Of a stretch of 64,000 nucleotides of DNA, positions 14,861 to 63,764 are shown one piece after another. The notes beneath the pieces were generated by a model. It was not told the origin of the DNA, did no database searches, and saw only the letters and a list, made by a program, of their open reading frames with translations. Numbering within the stretch: the first letter of the stretch is position 1; every line of letters starts with the position of its first letter. The position numbers and the translations under genes were made by a program. The DNA is from a bacterium (lineage in GTDB: Bacteria > Patescibacteriota > Minisyncoccia > Phycocordibacterales > VMGT01), in assembly GCA_030697645.1 (NCBI GenBank), contig JAUYPI010000015.1, forward strand, positions 15,583 through 79,582, in the 5' to 3' direction.

Positions 14861-14902
14861 GCATTTGCAATAACTCTGCGATCGCAGAGTTATTGCAAAT
14901 GC
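14861..14902. promoter_or_regulatory. 42-bp perfect palindrome GCATTTGCAATAACTCTGCG-AT-CGCAGAGTTATTGCAAATGC (GCGATCGC centre)
   Basis: Perfect dyad between the secF stop and gmhA. A near-identical copy lies at 40032..40073. It could be an operator or a terminator stem. Confidence 0.5.
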
Positions 14903-15025
14903 CACAAGTGACCACGCGTTGCTTTTCGCGTTTGCTTTTAGAGAGCGCAGCTGCTACTCTGCCTCATAGGTTGACCTTTTTTAAGATATATACGAGCCGA
15001 AACAACGAGACGAGGAGGAGAGCCC

Positions 15026-15631
15026 ATGGGACAGTTGGCGTGGAATTGCCAGTTTTTTCAGTACCTGCAACAGATCGATCAGCTCGCCGAGAAAATGCGG
15101 AACGATAAGGAGCTGGTTCGAAGCGTTGAGCATGCAACCCAGTGCCTGATTTCTACCCTGGGCACTGGCCACAAGATCCTCATTGCCGGCAATGGCGGCA
15201 GCGCGGCGCATGCGCAGCACTTTGCGGCCGAGCTCGTGGGTCGCTTTGCGAGGGCGCGACGGGCGCTGCCAGCACTCGCGCTCACGACCGACACCTCGAT
15301 CATCACGGCGTGGAGCAATGATTTTTCGTTTGAGGATGTGTTTGCGCGGCAGATCGAGGCGCTTGGCGCACAACGCGATATTTTTCTCGCCCTCTCAACG
15401 AGCGGTAATTCTTCGAACGTGATAGTCGCACAGAACGCGGCAAAGTTGCGAGGCCTTAGGATGCTGTGCCTTTTGGGCAAAGGCGGCGGCAAGCTTCTCG
15501 AAGCGTGTGAGCTCGAAGACTGTATTGTCGTGCCGTCGGACAACACGCAGCTTATCCAGGATGCGCATCAGTGGATTTTGCATCATTGGTGCGCGGCAAT
15601 TGATGAGGCGTTCTCGTCGATGGAGCGGTAG
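15026..15631 (+). CDS. gmhA: Phosphoheptose isomerase (SIS domain) GmhA
   Basis: SIS-domain motifs ILIAGNGGSAAHAQHFAAEL and FLALSTSGNSSNVI. About 190 aa. Confidence 0.7.
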   Translation: MGQLAWNCQFFQYLQQIDQLAEKMRNDKELVRSVEHATQCLISTLGTGHKILIAGNGGSAAHAQHFAAELVGRFARARRALPALALTTDTSIITAWSNDFSFEDVFARQIEALGAQRDIFLALSTSGNSSNVIVAQNAAKLRGLRMLCLLGKGGGKLLEACELEDCIVVPSDNTQLIQDAHQWILHHWCAAIDEAFSSMER

Positions 15632-20851: not shown

Positions 20852-20990
20852 GAATTTTCAATTTTCAATTTTACAATTTTCAAATAATTTCCAATGATTA
20901 AATTTCCAATTTCCAAACACGACGTCGTCGGCGTTTGAAAATTGACCCATTGAAAATTTATTGAAAATTGAAAATTGATAATTGAAAATT
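20852..20990. repeat. Hairpin-array element (AATTTTCAAT family) inserted in the 16S V1 helix
   Basis: Same arm unit and core (caaacacgacgtcgtcggcgtt) as the pil intergenic copies. Flanked by hairpins ccgcacctcattgcattcggtgcgg and gccgcaccgagtgtggcgaggtgcggc. Confidence 0.8.
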
Positions 20991-48100: not shown

Positions 48101-48575
48101 TATCGAGCGCGGGCACCTCTACATCGCCGTGCCGCCGCTCTATAAAATTACGCGAGGCAAAGAGGCGCACTACGTGTTTACCGATGACGAGAAGGCGGCG
48201 TATCTCAAAAAACTCGGCGTTGCGATTGATGACGTCTCGGAGCTTGAAGAGGAAGGGGAGGATGGAGAAGGGGATGCGGCTGCGGGCGGCGAGGCACCCG
48301 GAGGCGGAGAGCGCGAGGCAGGAGGAAGCGCGGAAGAGGGAAAACCGAAGAAAACCCCAAAGGTCTCGGTCCAGCGCTACAAGGGCCTCGGCGAGATGAG
48401 CGCGGACGAGCTCTGGGAGACCACGATGGACCCGGCGAGCCGCCTGCTTCACCATGTGATGATCGAGGATGCCGCCGAGGCGGACAAAGTCTTTGACATC
48501 CTCATGGGCACCGATGTTCCGGCGCGCAAAAGTTTTATCCAGAGCAACGCGAAATTGGCGAATCTTGATATATAG
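45108..48575 (+). CDS. gyrB: DNA gyrase subunit B, interrupted by an intein
   Basis: GHKL ATPase N-terminus, then LFVVEGDSAGG | intein | SAKMARDRVTQAILPLFGKVLN, and the Toprim and C-terminal domains (IIIMADADVDGSHI...YKGLGEMS). Has a Lys-rich N-terminal extension. Confidence 0.9.
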   Translation: MVKKVAQKKAKKAVQKRAGKMKTAKPGNGYGADQIQVLEGLEPVRRRPGMYIGTTGPDGLHHLVVEVFDNSRDEAMAGFGGDIELALLPGNRVRVVDNGRGIPVERHPQTKVSTLETVMTTLHAGGKFGSGGYTVSGGLHGVGVSVVNALSERLRAEVHRDGSAHAQEYRRGEPLAAAKRIGASERTGTIITFEPDATVFKDGISFDWKRIVDHMRQQAYLVKGMRITLLDARAYEGKFDDQKVFYLRDLGLDLPSTSFYFEGGLLSLVRFYNQSEKPVHKSIFYIEKEARALGVESVEIAFQYVDDISYRILAFANNTFNGEGGTHLTGFKGSLTRTLNSYARANNLLKEKDENFTGEDVLEGLTAVISVKLREIQFEGQTKAKLGSVEARTALEGVMNEALSNFLEENPDEARAIIGKVSLAMRARKAAKAAKDSVLRKGALEGMTLPGKLADCQSKKREETELFVVEGDSAGGCWSGDTKVALADGRHLSFLELVKEHEEGKQNFCYTMQENGHIGLAPIESPRRTKQNADVIKVTLDTGDDLLCTPDHLFRLVDGSYIPAYNLTSSHSLAPLYRKISKKGEGTQLNGYEMVFDPQAHKWMPTHILADIYNLKKNVYVTTDGNHRHHFDFNKRNNNPTNIKRVTYEQHMAYHHAYIERTLHRPDVKQKSIDSKRIAEFRERARAKSLEKRELFSENAKRQWQDEDYKTYMVQKFLDYYSSNESYRKRNNALLDKAQREYWSDNENRRVQSDRVRVFFEAHPERKAWLSREAKRQWDSESLRAWRGETTRLQWTPAFREKRREAYNETYLRKALGVLHELYAENGTIDYARYNALRRERNDRSIIRHDTICERFFDGDMGRMEEAVVNYNHRIVRIERLEEPMDVYDLEVPGTHNFALASGVFVHNSAKMARDRVTQAILPLFGKVLNAERARLDKILASDKFRALVIALGTGIGEGVDLEKLRYGRIIIMADADVDGSHIKTLYLTFFYRQLRDIIERGHLYIAVPPLYKITRGKEAHYVFTDDEKAAYLKKLGVAIDDVSELEEEGEDGEGDAAAGGEAPGGGEREAGGSAEEGKPKKTPKVSVQRYKGLGEMSADELWETTMDPASRLLHHVMIEDAAEADKVFDILMGTDVPARKSFIQSNAKLANLDI
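46536..47831 (+). mobile_element. Intein in GyrB (432 aa) with no recognisable LAGLIDADG/HNH block
   Basis: Starts C-W-S-G-D-T-K-V (block A) and ends VFVHN followed by extein Ser. The middle carries KRQW/REYW-type tandem repeats. Its first ~550 nt are markedly more AT-rich than the flanking gyrB. Confidence 0.8.
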
Positions 48576-49786: not shown

Positions 49787-50377
49787 ATGCCACCTCGCAC
49801 CATTCTCTTCTACGGCAGGTCCGGCTGCGGCAAGGGCACGCAGGCGGGGCTTCTTGCCGAGCGACTTGGAGAGAGCGGAGGCGCGGTGCTTATGGTTGAG
49901 ACCGGCAAGCTCTTTCGGGAGTTCATGGAGCGAAAGAACTTCACGAGCTCGCTCACGAAAGCACTTCTTGCCAAGGGCGGGCTTTTGCCGGAGTTTCTGC
50001 CGGTCTGGATCTGGACGCAAATAATAATTGATCGCTTCAGCGGCGCAGAGCATCTCGTGCTCGACGGGCTTGCGCGGCGGAGCGCGGAGTCCGAGGTGCT
50101 CGATGGCGCGCTCCGATTTTACGAGCGCCTGCCGGCCGACATCGTGATGATCAATGTCTCGCGCGAGTGGTCATTCACGCGGCTCAAGGGCCGTGGTCGT
50201 TACGACGATACGGACGCCGACATCAACCGCCGGCTCGATTGGTACGAGGAGATCGTGGTCCCCGCAGTCGCTTTTTTCCGCAACAAGCCGGGGTATCGTT
50301 TTCACGAGATCAACGGCGAGCAGGCGATCGAGGCGGTCGAGAGAGAGATCACGGAAGCCCTCGCACTTGGCGCGTAA
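49787..50377 (+). CDS. adk: Adenylate kinase
   Basis: P-loop GRSGCGKGTQA (Adk consensus G.PG.GKGTQ) and a C-terminal LID/NMP-bind arrangement. Confidence 0.75.
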   Translation: MPPRTILFYGRSGCGKGTQAGLLAERLGESGGAVLMVETGKLFREFMERKNFTSSLTKALLAKGGLLPEFLPVWIWTQIIIDRFSGAEHLVLDGLARRSAESEVLDGALRFYERLPADIVMINVSREWSFTRLKGRGRYDDTDADINRRLDWYEEIVVPAVAFFRNKPGYRFHEINGEQAIEAVEREITEALALGA

Positions 50378-50380: not shown

Positions 50381-50953
50381 ATGTTCATCGTCGGTATTAC
50401 CGGAACGCTCGGCGCGGGGAAGGGCACGGTGGTTGATTACCTCGTGCGGGAGAAGGGGTTCGTCCACGCATCTGTTTCTGAATTTCTTGCGGTGGAGACA
50501 AAGCGTCGCGGCATCGAGCCGGACAGGATTGCCCGACACAACCTCGCAAACGAATATCGAGCACAAGGGCCGACGGTGCTCATGGAGGCCGTGTATCAAT
50601 CGGTTCCTCAGGGAGTCGAGAGGGTCGTACTCGAGCCGCAACACACCGTCTCCGAGGTGCGGTTTATGCAGAGCCGAGGAGGCGTGGTGTTCGCAGTTGA
50701 TGCGGACCTCGAGACTCGCTATAACCGCATACGAGAGCGTGGGAGTCTTAAAGATAACGTATCATTTGATGAGTTTGCTGCGATTCAGAAGCTCGAAATG
50801 GCTTCGGATGATCCGAACAAGAACAATCTTGGCGCGGCTATCGAGGCAGCTGATTTTCATGTTACAAACGACGGGACGCTGGAGGAGCTCTATACGCAGA
50901 TCGAGCAGGTACTGGCAAAAATTCATTTCTCCAAACACGACGTGCGTGTTTGA
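50381..50953 (+). CDS. P-loop nucleotide or nucleoside kinase (dephospho-CoA kinase / dNK-like)
   Basis: Walker A GITGTLGAGKGTV and a size (190 aa) typical of small NMP/dNMP kinases. Exact specificity is not determinable from sequence. Confidence 0.4.
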   Translation: MFIVGITGTLGAGKGTVVDYLVREKGFVHASVSEFLAVETKRRGIEPDRIARHNLANEYRAQGPTVLMEAVYQSVPQGVERVVLEPQHTVSEVRFMQSRGGVVFAVDADLETRYNRIRERGSLKDNVSFDEFAAIQKLEMASDDPNKNNLGAAIEAADFHVTNDGTLEELYTQIEQVLAKIHFSKHDVRV

Positions 50954-51078: not shown

Positions 51079-51783
51079 ATGCTAGATACTTCACCGAATG
51101 AGTTGCGAATAATTTCCCTCGGCGGCTCGCTCGTCGTGCCGCAGGGTGTTGGCATTGATTTGGGGTTTCTCCACGAGTTCAAACGCTCCCTCGAGCGCGC
51201 GATTGCCCGAGGGCAGCGGTTTGCGGTGGTCGTCGGCGGTGGGAGCGTTGCGCGCGAGTACCAGAGCGCGGCGCGCGAGCTCTCCGAACTCTCGGACGAG
51301 GACGCCGATTGGCTCGGCATTCACGCAACGCGGCTCAACGCCCACCTTCTGCGTACGATTTTTAAGGACGTGGCGCACCCGAGAGTGTTTTCTTCCGAGG
51401 GTGATATTGTCGCGGTTGCGGAGCCGCTTACGATCGGTGCCGGGTGGCGGCCCGGGTGGAGCACGGACTACGTTGCGGTCGCGATTGCAGCGAAACTTGG
51501 CGCTCGGCGCATCGCAAATCTCTCGAACACCGACTATGTGTATGAGCGCGATCCGCGCGAGGACCCGACAGCAAAAAAACTTGCGCGTATCTCATGGCAC
51601 GAGTACCGGCTTCTCATCCCGCGCGAGTGGCGCCCCGGTCTCAACACGCCATTCGACCCCGTGGCCTCGGCGAAAGCGGAGGAGCTCGGAGTTGAAGTGG
51701 CGATCATGAACGGAAAGAAACTTGAGAATTTTGAGCGGTATCTTGTGGGGGAGAAGTTCGAAGGCACCGTTATTGCGCAGTGA
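51079..51783 (+). CDS. pyrH: Uridylate kinase (amino-acid-kinase family, archaeal-type PyrH)
   Basis: ISLGGSLVV...VVVGGGSVAR...IANLSNTDYVYERDP pattern of UMP kinases. 234 aa. Confidence 0.7.
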   Translation: MLDTSPNELRIISLGGSLVVPQGVGIDLGFLHEFKRSLERAIARGQRFAVVVGGGSVAREYQSAARELSELSDEDADWLGIHATRLNAHLLRTIFKDVAHPRVFSSEGDIVAVAEPLTIGAGWRPGWSTDYVAVAIAAKLGARRIANLSNTDYVYERDPREDPTAKKLARISWHEYRLLIPREWRPGLNTPFDPVASAKAEELGVEVAIMNGKKLENFERYLVGEKFEGTVIAQ

Positions 51784-51917: not shown

Positions 51918-52697
51918 TTGACTTTCATGTCTCTCATCAAAACTCCAGAGGAAATCGCCCTCATGCGCGCTGCTGGTAAGCGGCTTGCATTCGTGTTGCA
52001 CGAGGTCACTACTGCAGCGCTGCCGGGGGTTTCCGCGCGCGAGCTCGACTCCTCTGCGGAGCGTCTGATCCGCGCAGGCGGCGATCGGCCTGCATTTCTC
52101 GACTATACACCCGGCGGTGCGCGACGGCCGTACCCGGCGACGCTTTGTGTTTCCGTGAACGACGAAGTCGTGCACGGCATTCCGAACGAGCGCGAGAAAA
52201 TACTCCGCGAGGGCGACATCGTCGGTTTCGATCTCGGGCTTGAACACGGGGGATTTTTCGCCGACATGGCGGTGACGATCGGCGTCGGCGGGATTGACGA
52301 GCCGGGCCGACGGCTCATCGAGGCGACGCGTGGCGCGCTTGATGCGGGGATCGCCGTAGCGCGCGCAGGCAGCCACATTGGCGACATAGGTTTCGCTGTC
52401 GCGCGGTTCGTGCGTAAAGGTGGTTTTGGCCTCGTGACGGAGCTCGGTGGACACTCGATCGGCCGCTCTCTCCACGAACTCCCGTTCGTGCCAAACAGTG
52501 CGACGCGCGGCTCAGGCGCTCTACTTGCGAGCGGCATGACGATCTGTATTGAGCCGATGCTCTGTGAGGGAAGTGGCGCAGTACGGCTTGATTCGGACGG
52601 CTACACCTTCCGTACCCGAGACGGCCGCCGCAGCGCGCACTTTGAGCACACGATATTGATCACTGATGGAGGGGCGGAGATACTCACAGCGCCGTGA
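51918..52697 (+). CDS. map: Methionine aminopeptidase type I
   Basis: MSLIKTPEEIALMRAAGK start and metal-ligand blocks (VVHGIPN, DIVGFD, GHSIGRSLHE, FTIEP, HFEHT). Confidence 0.85.
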   Translation: MTFMSLIKTPEEIALMRAAGKRLAFVLHEVTTAALPGVSARELDSSAERLIRAGGDRPAFLDYTPGGARRPYPATLCVSVNDEVVHGIPNEREKILREGDIVGFDLGLEHGGFFADMAVTIGVGGIDEPGRRLIEATRGALDAGIAVARAGSHIGDIGFAVARFVRKGGFGLVTELGGHSIGRSLHELPFVPNSATRGSGALLASGMTICIEPMLCEGSGAVRLDSDGYTFRTRDGRRSAHFEHTILITDGGAEILTAP

Positions 52698-52715: not shown

Positions 52716-52857
52716 GATGCGATGCGCTTAATTTTCAATTTTCAATTCCAATGAATTTTCAATGTTTCAATGATGCAATGACGGACGACGTCGTGTTTGA
52801 AAATTGGGTAATTGAAAATTGATTGAAAATTGAGCATTGAAAATTTTTCCTTGAGTC
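52716..52857. repeat. Hairpin-array element (AATTTTCAAT family, core in reverse orientation)
   Basis: ttaattttcaattttcaattccaatgaattttcaatg...gcaatgacggacgacgtcgtgtttg...aaaattgggtaattgaaaattgattgaaaattgagcattgaaaatt. Confidence 0.75.
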
Positions 52858-52872
52858 TTGTATACTATACTC

Positions 52873-54285
52873 ATGGCCGAGCAGGACACAGTGAGCCCCG
52901 GTGCTGACATCTTTGAACGCGACGGCGTCGAGTACCGCCGCGTCCGAGGTTCGGAGAACGTGTACGAGTACAACCGTCTTACCGATGCGTCGGCGATTCG
53001 TTTTGAGGGCGGCGGCATCGCCGACGGCTACGTGATGCTCCACGCCGACGGCACCCCGGCGGCTCCGGCGATCTCCTACGTGGTGCTTGATCAGTACATC
53101 AAACGTGATGAACCGTTTCTCGGCGAGCTTGCGCGGACACCCCTCACCGCGCGCGACTTTTCGTATTACAGCGCCGCAGAGCAGGCACTGCGCGCGCTTG
53201 AGCGCGTCTCGATTACCTCTGACGGCAGGAGCGTCACGGTGATCTCAGGAGGGAGACAAGCGCGGATTGATCTCGTCCCGCCGTATCTGGTCGTGGACCG
53301 ATCGTATCGCGAGTTTTTTTCGTTCGTTGACATACGCGCAGGCATGCGGCTTTTCACGGATGTGGAGCTTAAAGTTGATTTCAAAAATCGCAACGTGGTG
53401 CTCGTTGACCGCCGCGGGAGCGGGACGATTCTCGCCGAGCTGCCGTATGCGCGCATACAAGATCTGAGGAGCGGCGAGATGATCGAGCCGGAAGAAAAAA
53501 CGCAAGAGGAAGCACTGGAGCGCGCTTCGTCTCCCGACGGGCGCGCCGCGCCAAAAACTCCTGCGAGCCCGCAAGCTGCGCCTGAGACACTGAGCGCGAG
53601 CGCAGTCATTCGGGGCAATACGGACCAGCCCTCGCCCCCTGCGGAGGGTGTCGCTCGCAGAGCTTCCACCGCAGGTGCTGTCCCTTCCGGGGAAAGCGTA
53701 ACCCCTGATAAGACGGAAACAGAGGAGAAGAGCGCGCAGAAGGAGAAGAGTGCGCCGCAGCGGTCGTCATTTTTGCGCCTCATTACTCCACAGGGCTCTG
53801 AGGCGAGCCCGACGCGCTCCACGGCGCCTTCGGCGAAAGATGCAGAACCGACTCTTCCCGCTCCGCCGCGCGAAGGCTTCCCGCGCCTCATCTCCGAGAC
53901 GCGGCGAGAGGCGGGTACGGAGCGGATTTACGAGCTCCCGCAGAGCAAGGTACGCCTCGCGCTCTCCTACCAGAGAGACGGTTCTATCGTTGTGGTGAGT
54001 GTACAACCAGGCATGTCGCTCTACCCGGGGAGTGCAGTCGTCTCCGACTGGGAGCAGCGCATCCTCCGCGCGCGCGAGCGCTGGAAGAAATTTCGCCACG
54101 ATGACGCGGAACAGGATATTGCCGCGGCAAAGCGCGTCGTCGTCGCCCGCGCGCGTGAGCTTCTTGCCTACGCCGCCGCAGTAGCGGCATTTGCCCCGGG
54201 GTCAAGCGAGGCCCGGGCGCTTGAGGAAGCGCGATTGAAGCTCAGGGCGGATACGGAAGCGAGGTACGGAAAGGTGTTTAAATGA
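52873..54285 (+). CDS. Hypothetical protein with low-complexity Pro/Ser/Ala middle region
   Basis: 470-aa ORF with structured N- and C-terminal portions around a disordered linker. Start taken at ATG 52873. Confidence 0.35.
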   Translation: MAEQDTVSPGADIFERDGVEYRRVRGSENVYEYNRLTDASAIRFEGGGIADGYVMLHADGTPAAPAISYVVLDQYIKRDEPFLGELARTPLTARDFSYYSAAEQALRALERVSITSDGRSVTVISGGRQARIDLVPPYLVVDRSYREFFSFVDIRAGMRLFTDVELKVDFKNRNVVLVDRRGSGTILAELPYARIQDLRSGEMIEPEEKTQEEALERASSPDGRAAPKTPASPQAAPETLSASAVIRGNTDQPSPPAEGVARRASTAGAVPSGESVTPDKTETEEKSAQKEKSAPQRSSFLRLITPQGSEASPTRSTAPSAKDAEPTLPAPPREGFPRLISETRREAGTERIYELPQSKVRLALSYQRDGSIVVVSVQPGMSLYPGSAVVSDWEQRILRARERWKKFRHDDAEQDIAAAKRVVVARARELLAYAAAVAAFAPGSSEARALEEARLKLRADTEARYGKVFK

Positions 54286-54520
54286 AACTGAGTGCAAAAT
54301 GTAAAGTGCAAAGCGCAAAACAACAGTACAAAATTCCAAGCTCCAACCAACAATTTCCAAACAAATTTCAAATTCCAATGCATCAAATCTCAAACACGCA
54401 CGTCGTGTTTGGAAATTGGATTTTGAGTATTGTGATTTATTTGGAGCTTGTTTTTTGGAATTTGGAAATTCGTTTTGCTCATTGCGCTGTTGTTTTTCGC
54501 TTTGCGAGTGCGAGCGGAAC
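54286..54520. repeat. Composite hairpin-array element (outer CAAAGCGAAAAACAACAG, inner ATTTCCAA, core CAAACACGCACGTCGTGTTTGG)
   Basis: Same three-layer nesting as 8740..8927 and 30975..31191. Confidence 0.75.
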
Positions 54521-54612
54521 TATCCGAGGTTTGCGTAGGCAAATGTATACTAGTACCTTGTCCCCACCTCCCTATTTTTAGTCAATCGATGAGCAGCGTA
54601 TAATACTTACTA

Positions 54613-57600
54613 ATGGATTCTCCATCTCAAGAGCGCATATCGCGCGGTTCTCTTACCGTTCTGGGCGAAGACGATCTGGATGTTCAGCTTCGCGAGGCTG
54701 AGCGCAGTAAGGCGATCCTTAAGGAACGCATGGGGGCAGAGAGCGAGGGTGGCTCAAAAGAAAAACGTTTGGCGGAGCAGGAGCTTCAACGTATGCTCGG
54801 TGAGGGCGATGGCGGCACGGGACGTGAGTCGGAAGTAGAAGCCGCGCGCGGAGAGCGGAACCCGGCACCTTCCACGGAAGGCGCTGAGCGGAGCGATAGG
54901 AAGGTTTCCGCGCCTCCCGAACCTCTGCCGGAGATGGGCTTGGCAAAGAAATTCCCGTCGGTGCCACCTGTGACCGAGAGTTCTCGGAGAGACGAAGACC
55001 CTGCATGGGATGCATTTTTTGGCGACGTAGAGGACGTCTCGCACACGGGAGGGGCCGAGATAGGGGAGCGCGAGGAACCCGCCGCACCTTCCCCGCGAGA
55101 CGCCGCAGCGATTGCGCCAGGGGGTGCGTCGGCTGCGCCTCGGGTATCCGAGCGCGCGGGTGCGGCAGGCGCTGCGGCCGAGTCGGCGGTCCCCATCAAG
55201 CTCGACCAGAGCGAGATGGGCGAGGAGGAGAAAAAGGCAGCGGCGCAAATTTTCGCGGAGATCGAAAAGCTGCCGCCGACCGAGCGCGAGGAGGTGGCGC
55301 TCGGATTTGAGAACTGGAATCTCGCCGTGAAGAAATTTAAGGGCCGTATTATTGACCGCGCGGTGAGCGCGGTGCCCGGTGCGCGCAAAGTCGAGTTTAT
55401 TGATGCGTGGGCGCGCAATTTCAATAAAGAGTATCTTGCGGCAAAGCGTGACATCGAGCGGATTCGCGAGGAGAAAGAGAGCGGCACCTACGCCACAAAG
55501 GGTTGGTGGGGGCAGGCGAAAAACATAGGGTATCTTTACGGTACTGCGGCAAAGTTTGCGCGGCCGGCGCTTTCTGCCGCAGGGTTCATGGGCTGGCCGT
55601 ATAAAGTGTGGATGCTCGGCGCGCTCGCTGCCGCGCGCGCGGCAGAGGTGGGAGCGCAAGTTTCGAGGCAGCGGGTGGCGACGACGCTCCGCGGCATGGA
55701 TGAGAGGGAGGCAGACGAGGCGGCTTCAGAGTTGCGTGCGATGGAGAGCGCGTCTGCTGCGATTAGCCGAGAAGGGGAGGACGCAGAAGCCCGCCGTGAC
55801 TACGAACTTGAGGCGCATGAGGGGCTGCCGGCTGAGTATCAAGCAGCATATGATGAAGCGTGGAATTTGTATGCAGAGGCACGCGAGAAACCCGCTGGGG
55901 GTGAACAGGCGACGAGGGAGGCGCTTGACGCGGTATACGCAAGCAGCCTGCCTCAGGGTCTTGCCGAGCGCATCGCACTCGGAAGCGAAGATCAACAACG
56001 TGATTGGCTTGCACAGCGGATGCAGCGGAAGGTAGGTGAGCGCATCGGAGGAATTGTGCAAGAGATTGATGCGGCGAAGACGCCGGAAGAAAAAGAGGCG
56101 CTGGTGAAAAAACACCGCGCAACGCTTGAGAAGTACGACGCGCTCATTGATTCGACCGGCCGCGTGCACGTGACTGCAGTGCGACTTGATCGGCTTGCGA
56201 CAGCCGGTAAGCTCGCGGTTGCAGGGCTTGCGATTGAGACCGGCGTCAGCGGCGGGTGGGCGCTCGCCGGAGCGGTTAAGTATTGGTGGGAGAGAGTCGA
56301 GCTGGTAGCGAACACAGAGGCGGCTCATTTTGAGAGTCGCGGACAGAAAGCTCCGTTTGAGTTTCGCGACAAAGAAGCTCCGTCTGTGCCTGATGCCCCC
56401 ACACAGCCGCCTACAGCGTCGTCGGCACCACCACCGGTGCCGACCGCGCCGCTCTCTCCGTCACTGCCAGAGGCTCCTGCCGCAGAGGTGAGCGCGGCGG
56501 AGGCGGAGGAGTTACCCAAGGCGCCTGCCGTCGCAGTAGGGGCCGCTGTTGCGCCGCGAATGGATGCAGAAGTCGAGAGTGGTGAGCGTGAACGAGGAAC
56601 TCCCACCGAGGGCGAGCAGTTCTCTGTAGCAGTGGAGGAACCTCACGCGGCAGAGGCGGCATCTCGTGTGGAAGCAGTACCCGAGCAAGCCATTGCGGCC
56701 GAAGAGGTGACAGGGGTACACGCTGGAGTCGAGACAGGACATCGAGGAATCGCGGCGGCAGCGCGAGAGGCTGCGGAGAGTGAGCGTGCGGTGGATAGCA
56801 CTGGCGTGCTCGCGGAGGACGTGGCTACCACAGAGGAGGCCGAAAAAGCAGTTGCCGCCATGCGCGAGACACACGCGGAATCAGTGCTTCCCGGGCGCGA
56901 GAGGCTTCCCGTGCGCAAGGGCGATTCGCCGCTGAGGCTCGCGAAGAAGCTCTACGCAGCGCGTGCGCAAGAACTCGGCTACACCGGTGATATGAAAAAC
57001 GCGGCCGCGCTCGAGCGCTGGGCTACTCGCGCGAGCACGCGGCAGTATGTCGGGCAGTGGCTCGTCGAGCACGCAGGGGATAGCAAAGAGCCGATGGCGC
57101 AGAAGTTTTTTGAAGACGTTGAACACGAGCAGCTCCTCGCGCGCTGGAAGGAGCACGCCGATCGCGGCGCGCTTGAGACGCTCGTGCGGCACCTTCGCGT
57201 CGGGGATTTTAACGATATTCTCAAAGAGAAGGCGCCGAACCTCTCTCTTGCGGGCGGCCATATTGAGCTCGATGAGCGCGGCAATATACTCTCCATTGAC
57301 TCCAAAGGCGATCGTCTCTTGGGCCACAGCGCGGAGCGTCGAGCTTCACTGTCGCCGATCGGAGAACGGGAACCTGTATCTCCGAGGCGCGACACAGTGG
57401 CAGAGCGTGAGCAACCAAGTGTGGTCTCCGTGTCGGGAGAGCATCGTGGTGCGCCCCGCGAGGCAGACACTCCTTTGAGCTACACGTCATTCTGGGAGCG
57501 GAGCGGCTTTGAGAAACCTGCGATCGTTCAGAGCGTGGCGGAGAGGGCGGGGATTACACCGCAGGCACTTGACCGCAGGGAGGAGCTCCTCCTTGACTTC

Positions 57601-58233
57601 TGGGGCAAGCACCCGCACGCTATTGCGCACGACTCGCCCCGCGAGGCGCGTCAGCTTTTTGAGACGCTCTCGCGGGATCCAGCGAAACTTGAAAGCCAGC
57701 TTTCGTTCCTTGACCACTTTGCGTACCGCCGCGAGACGCTCTCCGAAGCCGAGCAGGTGCTTCGCGTGGCCGACTTACTTTCCGAGCGGGTAGCTGCAAC
57801 CGACATCTATCGTTCGATTCTTGCGAATTATGAGGCGGTGCGGCACGTGGCTGATGCTACCCGTCAGGCCGATATTCTCGAACTCTTTCTCTCGCACGGC
57901 GCAAGCAAGCAGCCGCTCGAGCGGCTCACCTTGGGTTGGAACCGTACGCTCTTTCGCGGCGTGTCCGCCTCGCTCGATGAGAGTCTTGATCTCCGTGTGC
58001 GATTTTCGGTACGCAGCAACGCGGTACCAGTAGATATGATTCTCTACCGCAACGGTCGCGTAGCCGTTGACGGGCACGGCTTTGATGGCAATTGGCCAGC
58101 ACGCCGTTTTAAGGCGAATGCCCTACCGCTTACCGAAGACTCGCTTCGCGAAGCACTCGCATTCATTAGCCGATCGGATGGCGAGGGCGCAGTATTCATG
58201 AAGTCCGAGAGGAATGAAGGAATGGGAGGCTAA
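54613..58233 (+). CDS. Large hypothetical membrane-associated protein (1206 aa)
   Basis: Long acidic / Ala-rich low-complexity stretches. Two predicted TM helices at about aa 330-350 and 560-585. The C-terminal ~350 aa are structured. No recognisable family. Confidence 0.4.
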   Translation: MDSPSQERISRGSLTVLGEDDLDVQLREAERSKAILKERMGAESEGGSKEKRLAEQELQRMLGEGDGGTGRESEVEAARGERNPAPSTEGAERSDRKVSAPPEPLPEMGLAKKFPSVPPVTESSRRDEDPAWDAFFGDVEDVSHTGGAEIGEREEPAAPSPRDAAAIAPGGASAAPRVSERAGAAGAAAESAVPIKLDQSEMGEEEKKAAAQIFAEIEKLPPTEREEVALGFENWNLAVKKFKGRIIDRAVSAVPGARKVEFIDAWARNFNKEYLAAKRDIERIREEKESGTYATKGWWGQAKNIGYLYGTAAKFARPALSAAGFMGWPYKVWMLGALAAARAAEVGAQVSRQRVATTLRGMDEREADEAASELRAMESASAAISREGEDAEARRDYELEAHEGLPAEYQAAYDEAWNLYAEAREKPAGGEQATREALDAVYASSLPQGLAERIALGSEDQQRDWLAQRMQRKVGERIGGIVQEIDAAKTPEEKEALVKKHRATLEKYDALIDSTGRVHVTAVRLDRLATAGKLAVAGLAIETGVSGGWALAGAVKYWWERVELVANTEAAHFESRGQKAPFEFRDKEAPSVPDAPTQPPTASSAPPPVPTAPLSPSLPEAPAAEVSAAEAEELPKAPAVAVGAAVAPRMDAEVESGERERGTPTEGEQFSVAVEEPHAAEAASRVEAVPEQAIAAEEVTGVHAGVETGHRGIAAAAREAAESERAVDSTGVLAEDVATTEEAEKAVAAMRETHAESVLPGRERLPVRKGDSPLRLAKKLYAARAQELGYTGDMKNAAALERWATRASTRQYVGQWLVEHAGDSKEPMAQKFFEDVEHEQLLARWKEHADRGALETLVRHLRVGDFNDILKEKAPNLSLAGGHIELDERGNILSIDSKGDRLLGHSAERRASLSPIGEREPVSPRRDTVAEREQPSVVSVSGEHRGAPREADTPLSYTSFWERSGFEKPAIVQSVAERAGITPQALDRREELLLDFWGKHPHAIAHDSPREARQLFETLSRDPAKLESQLSFLDHFAYRRETLSEAEQVLRVADLLSERVAATDIYRSILANYEAVRHVADATRQADILELFLSHGASKQPLERLTLGWNRTLFRGVSASLDESLDLRVRFSVRSNAVPVDMILYRNGRVAVDGHGFDGNWPARRFKANALPLTEDSLREALAFISRSDGEGAVFMKSERNEGMGG

Positions 58234-59393
58234 AATTCTCGGAAATCAAATGTCGGCGTGGTCACACACTGCGCGGTATCGATTATACAAAGGGCAGTAC
58301 AGGTGAGTTGGCCGCCGATGAAACCTTCGCTCTGGCAGGTCGAGGGACCGAAATCTTCAGTGTCGCACTTCTCGGCGAGTTGCCGGATGGCATCCCCACA
58401 CTGGTAAACAAAGAGTGTGACAGGCGCGGTTGCCTCACCGTCCCGGCTATCTCGAATGGTGTAGGTGAAGGTTTCTTCGGGGAGGCTAAAAAATCTGGGG
58501 CTTGCACTTGGTGTGTAGCGGAGTAAGGCACCGCCGCTGATTATGGTAACGGTGCCGTTTGCGGGTTGTGTTACCGACACGATGGTGATGGGGTCGCCGT
58601 CCGGATCGGAGTCCGGGGTTGGGGGTTGCGCTCCGCAGTTTGCAAGTACGTCGAGGTCTGTGGAAAGCGCGACAATGCTTTCATTTGCGAAGCAGTTATC
58701 CGCCACGGCGACGGGCGGATCGTTGAACGTATCGTTGAACGTGACGTCGGTAAACTCGATCCAGCCCGGGCCGCCATCTATGGAGCCATTGCCGTCCGTA
58801 TCGTCGCCTCCCCACGCAAACCCCTGGATTTTGCCGCCGCGCACCTCGAGCACTTCGACGGTGACGCCATGATTGTTTGAGCCCGTGCAGCCGCCCGGTT
58901 CTGACAAGCAATTGAGACTGATCCATCCGTCCCAACCGCCGCCGAAGGAGAGCGCCCGCGCCCAGCCGGTAATGGCGCCGGTGACTCTGTTTGCGCGCGC
59001 CTCACAGGGCGCGAGCGGGCAGCCGGGCTGTGGGTTGAAGTCAATCCAGCCGATGCCTGCAGGCGAGGGGCCCGGGTCGCCTGTTCCTCCCCATGCGTAG
59101 CCGGAGAGAACGTCGGTATTGATGTCAAGGTGCACGCCGTAATTGGTGCTTGCGCAGACGAACGGATCATTCGTGCAGTTGAAGCTGATCCAGCCGAAGC
59201 CGCCGTCAACGACGTCGTCGTTATCATCATCCGCTTCGCTCCATGCCCAACCCGTGAGGTTGTGCGTGCTGTCGGCGTGGGTGAGGGGCAGCAGCGATGT
59301 GTGGAAAAATAGCAGCGCAAGCGCGGCGAGCGCGAGAGGGATGATGATGAAGCCGACGCGCATGCGAAATTTCATACCTCTATAATAGCGCAT
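58230..59393 (-). CDS. Secreted repeat protein
   Basis: Signal anchor and four G-x-A-W...G-W-I-x-F-N-C repeats. A DPDGDPITIVSVTQPANGTVTI segment resembles the C-terminal domain of the 23903 and 25712 proteins. C-terminal Cys-rich tail CGDAIRQLAEKCDTEDFGPSTCQSEGFIGGQLTC. Converges on and overlaps 54613..58233 by 4 nt. Confidence 0.45.
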   Translation of the reverse strand: MRYYRGMKFRMRVGFIIIPLALAALALLFFHTSLLPLTHADSTHNLTGWAWSEADDDNDDVVDGGFGWISFNCTNDPFVCASTNYGVHLDINTDVLSGYAWGGTGDPGPSPAGIGWIDFNPQPGCPLAPCEARANRVTGAITGWARALSFGGGWDGWISLNCLSEPGGCTGSNNHGVTVEVLEVRGGKIQGFAWGGDDTDGNGSIDGGPGWIEFTDVTFNDTFNDPPVAVADNCFANESIVALSTDLDVLANCGAQPPTPDSDPDGDPITIVSVTQPANGTVTIISGGALLRYTPSASPRFFSLPEETFTYTIRDSRDGEATAPVTLFVYQCGDAIRQLAEKCDTEDFGPSTCQSEGFIGGQLTCTALCIIDTAQCVTTPTFDFREF

Positions 59394-59435
59394 GACGAGA
59401 GCGTCGCGGTGGAGTTATCCACACCACTTAAATTT

Positions 59436-59760
59436 TCAAATTATCAATTTTCAATTTCCAATCAATTTTCCAATGACACAATTTTCAAACACGACGTCGT
59501 TCGTCATTGAAATATTAGACCTCTCCAGAAAGTCATTTCTACTGCAATTTTTGGTTTTCGGCTGCGACTTCGTCAGACGTCGCAAAATGATTCTCGCCGT
59601 ACATCCAGTACGCCGTCGAATCATTTTGCTCGTCTTCCTCGTCTCGCTCGAAAACCAAAAATTTCGTCGCGAAATGACTTTTTGGAGAGGTCTATTGAAA
59701 ATTCATTGAAAATTGATAATTGGAAATTGAAAATTATGAGTCCGTTTTGGTGATTATGAT
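59436..59760. repeat. Hairpin-array element (AATTTTCAAT family) carrying a 190-nt internal palindromic cargo
   Basis: Arms and core caaacacgacgtcgttcgtcattgaaat, then a nested palindrome gacctctccagaaagtcatttc...ttttggttttcg...cgaaaaccaaaaa...gaaatgacttttggagaggtc, then attgaaaattcattgaaaattgataattggaaattgaaaatt. Confidence 0.75.
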
Positions 59761-59811
59761 AAAATTTTACAGATTTGAGATTTGAGTTTAATACGGTGTT
59801 ATACTAACCGC

Positions 59812-62679
59812 ATGGATCTTTCTCCCAACCGGACTCTCGAGCGGCGTTCTGAGAGGCATGAGGACGAGCTCTCGGAGCTTCGAGTGCGTCTTGCCCAGGC
59901 TGAGCTCGCGGCTGAGCGCGCGCGCGGGGAGCGGCTGTCTCACGAGACCCGGGAGCGCCTCGCGAGCGAGGAACTTACAAGACACCGCGAGGAGCAAGAG
60001 GCGCACGGCGCGGCGAGCCCGGCCGAGACGGCGGCGATCGTGCTTGACCTCGCGCCGGAGAGTCATGATAGTCAGGTCGGGCTCCTCCTTGGCGTCGCAC
60101 GAGATCAGAGTGTCGGCGTGGCGCTTTCCGCCGCGCACAAGCTCGGCAATCCCCACATCGAGGACGATTTTCACCGCGCGCTCGTCGAGTATATCCGCGA
60201 GGGCTATCCCGCCGAGGGAGTGCGCGAGCGGGATCGGCTTTGGAAAGTGCTCCACATGACGCTCTACGAGATTCTCTTGCCGGAATTGCCGCAGGGAGGC
60301 GAGGCGCGCGAGCGCGGTCTCAAAGGGGTGCTCTCTTCGATGGAGCAGTTTTACTCCGGGATGCGCTCGCTTGCCGAGGGAGCGCGGGGAGGGGACATAT
60401 ACGCGCTCGAACTTGCGCTCCCAAACGTCGGGGACGAGGTGAGCTTCTACGTCGCGGTGCCGAGCGCGCGGCGCGACCTCTTTGAAAAGCAGCTGCTTGC
60501 CGTCTTCCCGCGCGCCGAGATCATTCCGCAGCACAACGACTACAACATTTTCAATGAGCGCGGAGCGCATGCGGCGGTGGTCGCGGCGTTTGGTGCGCGG
60601 CCGGCCTTGCCGCTCCGGCTTTACGAGAGCTTCGACTATGATCCTCTCAATGTCATCGCGAATGCGTTTTCAAAAATAGAACGCGCGGGCGAGGGCGCGG
60701 CGCTTCAGTTCCTGGTTCGCCCCTCGGGCGGCGAGCGCTACCAGCGGCACTTTCGCACCATACTGAAGAACGTGCGTGAAGGGATGCTGCTCGCGGAAGC
60801 GCTCGAAACCCCGGAGAGCATACTTGGCGAGTTCGCGGCGAGCGTGCGGGATTTTGTTTTCCAGCGAAAAAAATCGAAACGCGAGGAAGAAGACAGAAAA
60901 CAAAAACCGCCGAGCGTAGACCAGGCAGGAGTGGAACTCCTCGAGCGCAAGGTGGCGACTCCTCTCGTCGAGGCCGCAATCCGCATCGTCGCGTCGGCTG
61001 GAGACGAGCCCCGGGCCCGGGCGATCCTCGACGAACTTGTCGCCGCGTTCCACCAGTTTGAGGACCCGCAGGGGAACCGCCTGCGCTTCTCTCGTCTCTC
61101 GCGCGGCGCGCTCTCTGCCGGCCTTCGCTCCTTCAGTTTTCGCGAGACCGGCGCCGCACCTCTGCTCCCGCTCTCGCTCCGCGAGCTCACTACGCTCTTT
61201 CATTTCCCGGTCGCAGGAGAGCTCGCGACGCCGCAGGTGAGGTTCTCACGCGCTCGAGCCGGCGCGGCGCCCGCGCTCGCCTCGTTTAGAGATACATCCC
61301 GAGCGGTGAGCGCCCCTGCCGCGGCAAGCTCCGCTTATAGCGATCGCGTCGTACGCGACGCGACTTCGGGTGCGACGAGCGCAGCTCGGCAGAGCGAGGG
61401 GGTGGCGCTCGGCGTGAACCGCTTTCGTGGCGCCGAGACTCGCGTCTCGATCGCGCCGGAGGACCGGTTGCGGCATCTCTATGTGATCGGCCAGACCGGG
61501 ACGGGCAAGTCGACGCTCCTGCGGAACATGATCGTCGAGGACATCGCCGCGGGCGAAGGCGTGTGCATGATAGATCCGCACGGCTCGGATGTCGCGGAAG
61601 TGCTTGCGGCCGTGCCGCGCGAGCGCTACGGTGACGTGATTTACTTTGACCCGGGCTATAGCGCGCGTCCGATGGCGCTCAATATGCTCGAGTATGACTC
61701 GAGGCACCCGGAGCAAAAAACGTTCGTCGTGAACGAGCTCCTCGGCATTTTCCGCAAGCTCTTCGGCGCAGTCCCCGAGTCGATGGGGCCAGCGTTCGAG
61801 CAGTACTTCCGCAACAGTGCGCTTCTCGTGATGGAGGATCCCGCCTCCGGCAACACCCTCGTTGATGTCGCGCGCGTCTTATCCGACAAGCGTTTTCGCG
61901 AGCGGAAACTCGCGCAGAACCGCAACCCCCTCATCGCGCAGTTCTGGGAGAATGCCGAGCGCACGACCGGCGAGCAGGCGCTCGCGAACTTCGCGCAGTA
62001 CGTGACCAACAAGTTCGACGTCTTCCTCTCGAATGACGTCATGCGTCCGATCATCGCGCAGCAGCATTCGGCGTTTTCGTTCCGCGACGTGATGGACGGG
62101 CGGAAAGTGCTGCTCGTCAATCTCGCTAAGGGGCGGCTCGGGGATATCAACGCGCACCTCATCGGGCTTGTTCTCGTGGGGAAAATCTTGATGGCTGCGC
62201 TCTCGCGGGTTGACACCCCCGGGCTCGCGCTCCCGCCGTTTTACCTCTATCTTGACGAGTTTCAAAACATTACGACCGACTCGATTGCGGTGATCCTCTC
62301 CGAGGCGCGCAAGTACGGCCTCGGACTCACGATCGCGCACCAGTTTATCGGCCAGCTCTCGGAGAACATCCGCGACGCGGTCTTCGGCAATGTCGGTTCA
62401 CTCGTCGCGTTCCGCGTCGGCGCGGACGACGCCGAGGTGCTCGAGAAGCAGTTCGCGCCGGACTTCCGGGCGCACGACCTGATGAATATCGAAAACCGAA
62501 ACGCGTACGTGCGCCTGCTCTCGCACGGCCGTCCGACGAAGCCTTTCACGATTGAGACTGAGCCGCCGGAGAGCGGCGAGCCACTACAGGTTGAAGACTT
62601 GAAGCTCCGGTCTTATACCCGCTACGGCCGTCCGCGGGAGGAAGTGGAGAACGAAATCTTAGAGCGATATCGAGCGTAA
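59812..62679 (+). CDS. VirD4/TraG/TraD-like coupling-protein-type ATPase with a ~450-aa N-terminal domain of unknown function
   Basis: Walker A YVIGQTGTGKSTLLRNM, Walker B FYLYLDEFQN, then SEARKYGLGLTIAHQFIGQL...GNVGSLVAFRVGADDAE, which matches the T4SS coupling-protein C-terminal region (ARKYG...QS.SQL). No N-terminal TM segments. The family assignment is from memory, not a search. Confidence 0.55.
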   Translation: MDLSPNRTLERRSERHEDELSELRVRLAQAELAAERARGERLSHETRERLASEELTRHREEQEAHGAASPAETAAIVLDLAPESHDSQVGLLLGVARDQSVGVALSAAHKLGNPHIEDDFHRALVEYIREGYPAEGVRERDRLWKVLHMTLYEILLPELPQGGEARERGLKGVLSSMEQFYSGMRSLAEGARGGDIYALELALPNVGDEVSFYVAVPSARRDLFEKQLLAVFPRAEIIPQHNDYNIFNERGAHAAVVAAFGARPALPLRLYESFDYDPLNVIANAFSKIERAGEGAALQFLVRPSGGERYQRHFRTILKNVREGMLLAEALETPESILGEFAASVRDFVFQRKKSKREEEDRKQKPPSVDQAGVELLERKVATPLVEAAIRIVASAGDEPRARAILDELVAAFHQFEDPQGNRLRFSRLSRGALSAGLRSFSFRETGAAPLLPLSLRELTTLFHFPVAGELATPQVRFSRARAGAAPALASFRDTSRAVSAPAAASSAYSDRVVRDATSGATSAARQSEGVALGVNRFRGAETRVSIAPEDRLRHLYVIGQTGTGKSTLLRNMIVEDIAAGEGVCMIDPHGSDVAEVLAAVPRERYGDVIYFDPGYSARPMALNMLEYDSRHPEQKTFVVNELLGIFRKLFGAVPESMGPAFEQYFRNSALLVMEDPASGNTLVDVARVLSDKRFRERKLAQNRNPLIAQFWENAERTTGEQALANFAQYVTNKFDVFLSNDVMRPIIAQQHSAFSFRDVMDGRKVLLVNLAKGRLGDINAHLIGLVLVGKILMAALSRVDTPGLALPPFYLYLDEFQNITTDSIAVILSEARKYGLGLTIAHQFIGQLSENIRDAVFGNVGSLVAFRVGADDAEVLEKQFAPDFRAHDLMNIENRNAYVRLLSHGRPTKPFTIETEPPESGEPLQVEDLKLRSYTRYGRPREEVENEILERYRA

Positions 62680-63149: not shown

Positions 63150-63179
63150 ATCGTGGAGGGCGTTGCACGTTTCCCCATT

Positions 63180-63764
63180 ATGCAAAAACTCCGCGAAGAA
63201 CAAACGTTTCTCCTGATCAAGCCCGACGGCGTCCGCAAGGGGCTCGTCGGCGAGGTGCTGAAGCGCATCGAGCAGCGCGATCTCAAGATCGTCGCGCTGG
63301 AGATGTTTGCGGCCTCGCGTGAGCAGGTGGACGAGCACTACCCGAAGGACCCTGCGTGGGTGCGCCGCCTCGGCGAGAAGTCGCTCGCGACGTACCACAA
63401 GTACGGCATGGATGCTGCCGCCGAGCTCGGCACGGACGACCCCGACGAGATAGGTAAGATGGTGCGGCGCTGGCTCGTGGACTATATGGTCTCCGCACCG
63501 CTTGTGCGTATGGTTGTGCAGGGTATTCACGCGGTTGACATGGTGCGCAAGATTTGCGGGCCGACGATGCCCTACATCGCCGACATGGGGACAATCCGCG
63601 GCGATTTTTCCGCTGACTCTCCCGCGATTGCAAACAGCGAGAAGCGGGCGGTAATGAACCTCGTGCATGCCTCGGAGACTCCGGAGGAGGCGGCGCACGA
63701 GATCGGATTTTGGTTCGGCGACCGAAAGGCGTTTCAGTACAAACGCTTCGGCATTGATGAATGA
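63180..63764 (+). CDS. ndk: Nucleoside diphosphate kinase (long form)
   Basis: TFLLIKPDGVRKGLVGEVLKRIE and active-site N..H.S block (NLVHASETPEEAAHEIGFWF). Start taken at MQKLREEQ (63180). Confidence 0.75.
   Translation: MQKLREEQTFLLIKPDGVRKGLVGEVLKRIEQRDLKIVALEMFAASREQVDEHYPKDPAWVRRLGEKSLATYHKYGMDAAAELGTDDPDEIGKMVRRWLVDYMVSAPLVRMVVQGIHAVDMVRKICGPTMPYIADMGTIRGDFSADSPAIANSEKRAVMNLVHASETPEEAAHEIGFWFGDRKAFQYKRFGIDE

Follow-up and report, generated by a model that had tools for sequence, protein, structure and literature searches.

VirB4, TrwB, HerA and FtsK domains form hexameric rings that couple ATP hydrolysis to the movement of DNA or protein or to the assembly of membrane machines. VirB4 makes its contact with the membrane via partner proteins bound by its N-terminal domain, and VirB4-type ATPases also drive DNA import, with ComB4 of Helicobacter and CedB of Crenarchaeota as known cases. 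Here, we describe a predicted ATPase of 955 amino acids (aa) that resembles those of type IV secretion systems (T4SS), together with the gene block that it terminates, in a 64,000-nucleotide (nt) stretch of a patescibacterial genome (contig JAUYPI010000015.1; this whole stretch is the window). An open reading frame (ORF) scan confirmed the four ORFs of the block at the coordinates given in a preliminary description of the sequence, including the convergent overlap of the second and third genes, which share 4 nt (58230-58233):

52873-54285, plus strand, ORF of 470 aa (length counted from the ATG; a TTG five codons 5′ of it is a possible alternative start)
54613-58233, plus strand, ORF of 1206 aa
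58230-59393, minus strand, ORF of 387 aa
59812-62679, plus strand, ORF of 955 aa, the ATPase (length counted from the ATG)

Patescibacteria represent a large share of bacterial diversity and are reduced epibionts; how DNA and proteins cross their envelope is a central question. According to a recent survey, 5,713 VirD4-like homologues of type IV coupling proteins (T4CPs) occur in 2,918 of 3,035 patescibacterial genomes, only 148 of them near virB4; most Patescibacteria carry a relaxase-less MPF-FATA-type T4SS, relaxases are mostly absent, and the T4CP homologues may have been exapted (Quinonero-Coronel et al. 2025, PMC12102498). The ATPase family described here is very probably part of this set of T4CP homologues. 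Its N-terminal domain (annotated as DUF8128, VirB4-like in predicted fold), the absence of a membrane anchor and its slot between map and ndk are not described in the available passages of that paper.

The preliminary description had regarded the four genes as a possible surface or secretion module specific to the candidate phyla radiation (CPR). Our analysis points elsewhere. Taken jointly, three points are highly likely to hold: the ATPase belongs to a broad family that keeps a housekeeping slot, its upstream neighbors are lineage-restricted, and its predicted architecture is that of VirB4. The block would then be a composite of a widespread ATPase in a housekeeping position and three lineage-restricted upstream genes, and not a conserved secretion module.

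The signature that had first marked the protein as a T4SS-type ATPase is present: a Walker A motif (GQTGTGKS, aa 560-567, nt 61489-61512), a Walker B motif (LDEFQ, aa 814-818, with the Asp-Glu pair at nt 62254-62259) and the motif ARKYG...AHQFIGQL. Across 119 homologous sequences, Walker A, Walker B and the ARK/HQ motifs do not vary, so the protein should be a catalytically intact and active enzyme, judging from its sequence. Pfam profile matches are weak and cover for the most part only the surroundings of Walker A and the RK...Q region near the C-terminus. TrwB_AAD_bind (26.3 vs. 20.5), TraG-D_C (23.3 vs. 22) and T4SS-DNA_transf (20.7 vs. 20.1) score just above their cutoffs, DUF87 reaches 27.9 bits over aa 541-591 only, around Walker A, and FtsK_SpoIIIE (PF01580), also restricted to the surroundings of Walker A, stays below its cutoff with 19.8 vs. 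24 bits. All NCBIfam models for T4CPs, VirB4 and HerA remain far below their cutoffs (SXT_TraD, 42.7 vs. 366 bits; HerA models, E 0.0045 or worse at cutoffs of 800-970 bits), a weak match to the CedD model has an E value of 7e-5, and PADLOC returned a mad8 match (E 1.2e-17) along with weak HerA matches. When the family profile was compared with the sequences of solved structures, TrwB came out best (E 1.3e-4), followed by DotL. The above-cutoff Pfam matches, this TrwB match and the superposition of the C-terminal half on TrwB (TM-score 0.62) uphold the initial T4SS-type identification, and in profile searches the protein does not behave as an ordinary FtsK- or HerA-family housekeeping protein.

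An AlphaFold2 model of the ATPase based on 119 homologues (pLDDT 83.9) comprises a helical N-extension (aa 16-130), an alpha/beta domain (aa 140-465, nt 60229-61206; pLDDT ~90), hereafter the N-domain, a disordered linker (aa 489-527) and a TrwB-like nucleotide-binding domain (aa 530-955, nt 61399-62676); in the model, helices at about aa 635-762 separate Walker A from Walker B and form an all-alpha insertion. Modelled separately, the N-terminal half reached a pLDDT of 85.9 and a pTM of 0.80. This half had been called coiled-coil rich and unknown. The first term suits aa ~16-130, which are helical, but not aa 140-465, a confidently predicted alpha/beta domain; as to the second, public annotation already assigns PF26449 (DUF8128). 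In precomputed annotation, PF26449 is present on all 120 homologues listed, and UniRef names one member of the N-domain family “DUF8128 domain-containing protein”. A literature search found no paper under DUF8128 and nothing specific on TraG/VirD4 or competence in Parcubacteria or on FtsK in the CPR. We used a Kyte-Doolittle value of 1.6 as the threshold for a transmembrane (TM) helix. No 19-mer within aa 1-778 reaches it and no N-terminal hydrophobic segment was found, in agreement with the missing N-terminal anchor noted before; the only 19-mer above the threshold (aa 779-797) belongs to a helix that the model buries inside the ATPase core.

In a Foldseek search of the PDB with the full-length model, TrwK, the VirB4 protein of R388, ranked first and aligned collinearly over ~940 columns (E 8.5e-14), followed by TrwB and then by HerA, DotL and Cag-beta. 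No FtsK chain was among the 50 fold matches listed. The C-terminal half superposed on TrwB with a target-normalized TM-score of 0.60-0.64 (~420 columns vs. 417 residues, root-mean-square deviation ~5 Å). With the N-domain model as query, TrwK/VirB4 chains took each of the first 14 ranks (E 1.4e-6 to 8e-4), after which the E value rose to 0.03. In its predicted structure, the ATPase thus shows a two-domain, anchor-less VirB4 architecture with an N-domain of VirB4/TrwK fold, while its C-terminal half matches TrwB/VirD4 from end to end. Of the earlier assignment as a VirD4/TraG-like coupling ATPase, the T4SS-type nature is retained in the model, but the likeness to VirD4 gives way to an architecture nearer to VirB4.

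The ATPase is a single, vertically inherited family, conserved over its full length and very widespread in Patescibacteria of the Parcubacteria/Paceibacteria type. A search at E ≤ 1e-5 retrieved 374 homologous proteins, which among the matches listed come from metagenome-assembled genomes (MAGs) of the Parcubacteria group. The best 120 of these 374 measure 862-961 aa and share ~47-56% identity at 92-100% query coverage, with the exception of P0001 (85% identical) and P0002 (700 aa, 100% identical over 73% of the query), both of which carry PF26449 as well. In a pattern scan in which a single genome represented each GTDB species, at least 591 genomes carried the family. The N-domain alone recruits 858 clusters at the 50% level; full-length forms of its family have either ~900-1000 aa or, if the helical N-extension is absent, ~790-840 aa. 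Among ten N-domain cluster names looked up, all those that name a taxon refer to Parcubacteria, Wolfebacteria or Minisyncoccia.

For the genomic context we collected 85 ATPase-encoding loci with 10-kb flanks, in which neighboring ORFs were called crudely (longest ORF, greedy removal of overlaps) and then clustered. Three arrangements recur: (i) SecY-Adk-Map, zero to three variable ORFs, the ATPase, zero to two variable ORFs, and NDK-DUF2238-RNase J; (ii) in one clade, the ATPase directly behind the division and cell-wall proteins MraW, FtsL-like, FtsI and, in some cases, MurE (Mur ligase) (L006, L009, L013, L014, L069 and L076); and (iii) the ATPase, a large variable protein, DUF5663, FKBP and TGT. 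Adk was found in 29 of the 85 loci, Map upstream of the ATPase in 29-30 and NDK downstream of it in 35-36. Map, ATPase and NDK are directly contiguous, with gaps of ~60 nt, in at least six loci; in L002, L025, L045, L051, L058 and L064 the uninterrupted run also takes in SecY and Adk. The ATPase therefore occupies a conserved housekeeping position behind the ribosomal-protein/secY-adk-map operon and in front of ndk. The window follows arrangement (i), with the variable slot filled by the three lineage-specific genes and hairpin repeats, and the block is flanked by housekeeping genes:

45108-48575, GyrB with an intein (Pfam Intein_splicing covers aa 485-908)
49787-50377, adenylate kinase
50381-50953, second P-loop kinase
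51079-51783, AA_kinase-family (UMP-kinase-like) protein
51918-52697, plus strand, methionine aminopeptidase (map), directly 5′ of the block (Pfam Peptidase_M24, E 3e-41)
63153-63764, plus strand, nucleoside diphosphate kinase (ndk), directly 3′ of the block (Pfam NDK, E 1.6e-35)

Components of a T4SS were not found nearby. No T4SS family was detectable among the 24 larger ORFs of the window that were scanned, no T4SS Pfam family in L001-L005, and none among the recurrent neighbor clusters scanned in the 85 loci. Relaxase and mating-pair-formation genes are absent from the window and from all 85 loci, which also lack a second T4SS-type ATPase or paralogue within 10 kb. In four loci, a soluble, all-helical protein of 96-98 aa is encoded 25-80 nt 5′ of the ATPase gene (L037, ~9706-9996; L039, 2348-2638; L048; L052). 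As a candidate for a VirB3-like small TM protein it was rejected, because these ORFs contain no TM segment.

The three upstream genes contrast with the breadth of the ATPase family. All four genes of the block are real and not ORF artefacts of a GC-rich stretch, since they evolve under purifying selection: the ratio of nonsynonymous to synonymous substitution rates (dN/dS) relative to the closest orthologues is 0.25 for the 1206-aa gene, 0.21-0.27 for the 470-aa gene, 0.16 for the 387-aa gene and 0.14 for the ATPase. The raised GC content of the block (0.59-0.64 vs. a window mean of ~0.56) follows from the Ala/Arg-rich composition of its proteins. The 470-aa and 1206-aa proteins are ordinary lineage-specific orphans. 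Neither has a match in Pfam, NCBIfam, PADLOC or PHROG, and searches of PDB sequences with the 470-aa protein and with the core and C-terminal region of the 1206-aa protein returned nothing. Each has three matches in 5.8 billion protein clusters: for the 1206-aa protein itself, a 1222-aa protein (66% identical) and one of 845 aa that covers 37% of the query at 67% identity; for the 470-aa protein one 78% identical, a partial copy of itself and one 53% identical.

With 15.8% Ala and 12.1% Glu, the 1206-aa protein has the Ala-rich and acidic regions described initially. The only region conserved across lineages is a core of ~350 residues (aa 211-563, nt 55243-56301); the flanks are of low complexity, Ala/Glu-rich and hypervariable. 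Its two most hydrophobic 19-mers (aa 332-350 and 534-552), Ala/Gly-rich helices within this core, score 1.13 and 1.36 and thus fall short of the TM threshold, so that the two TM segments assigned earlier are not established. An iterative hidden Markov model (HMM) search with filters off delimited a family consisting of the window protein, P0122, P0123, a 1466-aa protein (L001) and an 862-aa protein from a Campbellbacteria MAG (L029). Homologues occur in about five lineages, some of them away from the ATPase, and a metagenome scan with the core returned only a contig 99.9% identical to L086 and no new lineage. On one contig of metagenome 3300045502 (L092, 3173-6433), a homologue with 67% identity adjoins a convergent T2SSE/PilB-type ATPase. 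In the 470-aa protein, conserved domains at the N-terminal (aa 7-205) and C-terminal (aa 340-470) ends enclose a variable, low-complexity middle, and no TM segment was found in it. Its homologues, known from about four lineages, also include some distant from the ATPase; the one in L001 shares 36% identity and does not conserve the middle. Another contig of metagenome 3300045502 (L087, 1062-6703) carries a homologue with 53% identity behind PilC, a pilin and a pilin-like gene.

The 387-aa protein, also counted among the unannotatable proteins, does have a recognizable domain: Big_9/cadherin-like, aa 220-330 (Pfam Big_9, E 2.7e-17; Cadherin_4, E 6.3e-9). Hydropathy points to an N-terminal signal or TM segment at aa 13-31, and four G-x-A-W...G-W-I-x-F repeats and a Cys-rich C-terminus complete the picture of a typical, putatively secreted or surface protein.

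The four genes keep their order among the nearest relatives only. In the closest one (metagenome 3300022563), whose ATPase is 85% identical, the equivalent gene order is spread over two short contigs, L089 (AA_kinase, Map, 470-aa homologue) and L088 (387-aa orthologue in the equivalent position on the opposite strand, ATPase, NDK). L001, with an ATPase 56% identical, has RmuC, the 470-aa and 1206-aa homologues, the ATPase and NDK without the 387-aa gene. L029 retains Map, the 1206-aa homologue, ATPase and NDK, and in L061 an ORF matching the N-terminal repeat region of the 387-aa protein likewise lies between map and the ATPase. In L086 and L093, a 1206-aa homologue (66% identical) has a PIN/Phd toxin-antitoxin pair on one side and secY on the other, and the ATPase is missing from the contig. 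Among the 85 ATPase loci, tblastn found 470-aa and 1206-aa homologues in L001 only, to which the iterative HMM search added L029 for the 1206-aa family. Searches for homology of these two families to other families next to the ATPase (phmmer, filters-off iterative HMM, HHalign) were empty apart from L029, and such a relationship was rejected. The proposed module fails by the standard set in the preliminary description itself, co-conservation in relatives, because the synteny of the four genes is confined to the nearest relatives: an ATPase present in at least 591 species genomes stands beside two proteins with three cluster matches each, and the four are not co-conserved. In other lineages, the slot between map and the ATPase is empty or holds unrelated genes.

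All three intergenic gaps of the block carry AT-rich palindromic elements, among them the hairpin between the 387-aa gene and the ATPase, which had been noticed before and whose inverted repeats we located:

52726-52845, AT-rich palindromic intergenic hairpin element with TTGAAAATTGA-type repeats, inverted repeats found
54308-54505, diverged copy in the gap between the 470-aa and 1206-aa genes, with nested inverted repeats
59434-59735, composite hairpin element in the gap between the 387-aa gene and the ATPase, with a second palindrome inside AT-rich outer arms (outer arms 59434-59462 and 59705-59735, inner palindrome 59516-59560 and 59649-59694)

The window contains 59 matches to the TTGAAAATTGA-type arm motif, where 1.15 are expected. 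Further copies of the element lie at 6628-6722, 7401-7508, 8147-8261, 11118-11206, 12373-12496 and 20858-20985; these elements, built of phased repeats, are concentrated in the gaps of the type IV pilus cluster (5.4-13.8 kb) and around the block genes. An Rfam scan of 50-64 kb, hairpin elements included, found no family at gathering score. Contigs L088 and L089 end near the positions of the hairpin gaps, so the repeats could break up assemblies. A promoter scan placed a promoter-like TTGAAA-18-TATACT at 52837-52866, whose end is 6 nt short of the start codon of the 470-aa gene and whose –35-like TTGAAA comes from the right arm of the first hairpin. Similar –10-like hexamers (TATACT/TATAAT) end 6-8 nt before the ATG of the 470-aa, 1206-aa (54599-54604) and ATPase genes (59800-59805), which suggests separate promoters and leaderless or near-leaderless mRNAs for these three genes. 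Elsewhere in the window, an indoleamine 2,3-dioxygenase family protein (16787-17962, minus strand; Pfam IDO, E 1.9e-53) is unexpected for a seemingly reduced CPR genome, and the window has just two tRNA genes, adjacent to each other and both for tRNA-Arg (2576-2650 and 2688-2759, minus strand, anticodons CCG and GCG).

We favor a reading in two parts. The 470-aa, 1206-aa and 387-aa genes and the palindromic repeats occupy a variable slot between map and the ATPase, and the three proteins evolve fast and are lineage-restricted. The ATPase would assemble as a cytoplasmic, hexameric, ATP-driven motor, dock on membrane partners through its VirB4-like N-domain instead of TM helices of its own, and act in trans by feeding substrate to, or energizing, the relaxase-less T4SS encoded elsewhere in the genome. 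This role of the ATPase is a tentative proposal, possible rather than probable; for the composite explanation as a whole, with the role in trans included, we see the chances as evenly balanced. Several observations weigh against parts of this reading. The TM-scores behind the VirB4 fold are low (0.30-0.35, query-normalized), and no sequence-profile link to VirB4 was found: TIGR00929 matches with an E value of 0.048 and 11.8 bits against a 643-bit cutoff, PF03135 does not match, and the N-domain profile hit nothing among PDB sequences or in Pfam, for which reason a sequence-level link between this domain and VirB4 was rejected. Our data do not connect the ATPase family with the T4SS genes of the genomes that carry it, and its placement close behind ribosomal-protein or cell-division genes, as in an operon, is more in keeping with housekeeping than with host interaction. 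The T4CP homologue of Ca. Southlakia epibionticum, which may belong to another family, is reported not to be essential, in contrast to the T4SS genes (PMC12102498). As to a pure insertion slot, 1206-aa homologues stand upstream of ATPases that are only 50-56% identical (window, L001, L029), and large Ala/Glu-rich orphan ORFs are enriched beside the ATPase.

The ribosomal-operon, cell-division and nucleotide-kinase neighborhoods suggest a different role, that of an autonomous housekeeping nucleic-acid translocase independent of any T4SS, either FtsK/HerA-like in segregation, division or repair, or a DNA-import motor for nucleotide salvage that would be analogous to ComB4 or CedB. Among the competing explanations this is the main one, although on the unlikely side. 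It accounts well for the co-directional placement with ~60-nt gaps behind secY-adk-map and before ndk, for the position directly behind mraW-ftsL-like-ftsI(-murE) in the six loci of arrangement (ii), and for UvrB, RmuC, Pif1 and RNase J among the neighbors; in the window, adk, the second P-loop kinase, the UMP-kinase-like AA_kinase gene and ndk surround the ATPase. The gene is near-universal with exactly one copy per locus, HerA is among the top fold matches, and the CedD match points in the same direction. Gene position is weak evidence in tiny, compact genomes, however, and the best matches in both sequence and structure are T4SS ATPases and not FtsK or HerA: FtsK_SpoIIIE remains below its cutoff, and an FtsK gamma domain, a HAS-barrel or an adjacent NurA gene was not seen. 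Yet another explanation sees in the block what is left of an integrated conjugative element or prophage and derives the TraG/VirD4 gene from it, in line with the TraG/VirD4-type Pfam matches, the related two-domain ATPases of large Bacillus phages and the GC content above that of the window. The latter is attributable to protein composition, the window and the 85 loci are free of integrase, relaxase, further T4SS and phage genes, the only tRNA genes of the window (at 2.6 kb) are ~50 kb away from the block, and identity between ATPases tracks lineage. Because the chromosomal position is conserved, across hundreds of species, this origin is effectively refuted and was rejected as highly improbable.

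Two further explanations concern the upstream genes. The ATPase could form a minimal CPR export or attachment system with an adjacent, large, fast-evolving, Ala/Glu-rich partner that has central hydrophobic helices and acts as membrane adaptor or substrate, here the 1206-aa protein, perhaps with the 470-aa protein. Ala/Glu-rich orphan ORFs of at least 450 aa make up 17 of 305 ORFs within two genes of the ATPase but 6 of 1079 at a greater distance (odds ratio 10.6, Fisher p 1.3e-7); this significance is overstated because related genomes were counted as independent, and the ORF calls were crude. One family of 670-1260 aa lies always directly 3′ of the ATPase, at position +1, in ten loci (L003, L021, L027, L041, L042, L049, L063 at 12714-15569, L078, L080 and L084), and seven of the ten members have one central TM segment at the 1.6 threshold; it evolves fast, has no Pfam match and is usually followed by DUF5663, FKBP and TGT. 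L001 and L029 have the 1206-aa family directly 5′ of the ATPase, and the window has it 5′ as well but separated by the 387-aa gene; L004, L020, L024, L037 and L052 have a family of 424-516 aa that may stand 5′ or 3′ of the ATPase, and the ATPase itself has no anchor. We keep the pairing as a minority hypothesis, and an unlikely one, since HHalign finds no homology among the neighbor families (probability <1% for the 1206-aa core against the +1 family) and several genomes lack such a neighbor, including at least six loci with map-ATPase-ndk and no partner gene. Moreover, homologues of the 1206-aa protein (L086/L093, L092) and of the 470-aa protein (L087) live away from the ATPase, and the hydrophobic segments of the 1206-aa core are sub-threshold. 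In its general form, this idea would give Paceibacteria-type CPR bacteria an unrecognized minimal translocation system, made of a core VirB4-like motor separate from the VirB4 of the T4SS and a hypervariable, membrane-associated partner. Such a system might import host DNA for nucleotide salvage or export surface or attachment proteins, and pressure from the host interaction might make the partner diverge until homology between lineages is erased; we consider this doubtful. Whatever the ATPase does, its two orphan neighbors of 470 aa and 1206 aa could instead be accessory components of type IV pili or competence that came to lie beside the ATPase by accidental insertion. The two contigs of metagenome 3300045502, with the PilC-pilin-pilin-like run before the 470-aa homologue and the T2SSE/PilB-type ATPase abutting the 1206-aa homologue, argue for such a role, as do the hairpin repeats that flank the block genes and are otherwise concentrated in the pilus cluster gaps. 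But these are two contigs from one sample and possibly from one organism, the copies in the window, L001, L089 and L029 are not near pilus genes, and neither protein resembles known pilus proteins in Pfam or NCBIfam, which leaves this an improbable account.

On the favored reading of the block as a composite, one large family of T4CP-like genes located far from any T4SS can now be characterized as anchor-less and, in its predicted structure, of VirB4 architecture. It is conserved in sequence and position like a housekeeping gene and is shared with large Bacillus phages. A near-universal, uncharacterized core gene of Parcubacteria offers a concrete target for study of its hexamer, its substrate and its docking partner. 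The case also calls for caution, as a TraG/VirD4 match in a CPR genome need not mean that the locus serves conjugation or secretion. That large Ala/Glu-rich orphans recur next to the ATPase is a lead worth testing.

Compared with known systems, the ATPase shares the ASCE P-loop superfamily with FtsK/SpoIIIE and HerA, as well as the housekeeping context, the DUF87 match and, with HerA (4d2i), a place among the top ten fold matches. Unlike FtsK/SpoIIIE it has neither N-terminal TM helices nor a gamma domain; unlike HerA it shows no HAS-barrel, its N-domain model has no HerA match, and no NurA-like gene was noted beside it in the loci inspected. T4SS ATPases match it better than either. In the T4CPs (TrwB/VirD4/TraG/TraD, DotL, Cag-beta), similarity extends over the C-terminal 425 residues, which align with TrwB minus its N-terminal 70 residues and include the RecA-like domain, the inserted all-alpha domain and the Walker A, Walker B and RK...Q motifs. 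The N-terminal TM domain that defines T4CPs, usually two helices, is replaced by a cytoplasmic region of ~500 residues, and no relaxase or T4SS genes accompany the ATPase.

Large Bacillus phages (phage G gp156, phage JL gp150, SP-10 and CP-51; PHROG 5156) encode the closest relatives outside the family, and theirs are the only two-domain relatives found outside the phylum. PHROG 5156 matches the ATPase with an E value of 2.8e-64 over aa 523-952, tblastn against these phages gave 25-27% identity over the ATPase half, and the N-domain model matches that of phage G gp156 with an E value of 9.7e-17 and a query-normalized TM-score of 0.48. The phage proteins differ in their genomic setting, with StbA/ParM-like and further phage genes as neighbors, and sequence similarity to them is confined to the ATPase half. 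In phage G (L091), gp155 adjoining gp156 is annotated as VirB-like; in phage JL (L090), gp150 lies five genes (~0.9 kb) downstream of a StbA/ParM-like gene (gp155).

VirB4 (TrwK of R388; PDB 7o42, 7o43 and 8rtd) differs in three respects: the ATPase has no membership in its profiles (TIGR00929, CagE_TrbE_VirB), never stands beside VirB3-, VirB6- or VirB8-type genes in the loci examined, and possesses the additional helical N-extension (aa 16-130) and a disordered linker of 40 residues. Against these differences stand an N-terminal alpha/beta domain joined to a C-terminal RecA-like ATPase, a similar length and the lack of a TM segment of its own, and in the predicted structure VirB4 provides, at low TM-scores, the best full-length fold match and the only significant fold matches of the N-domain.

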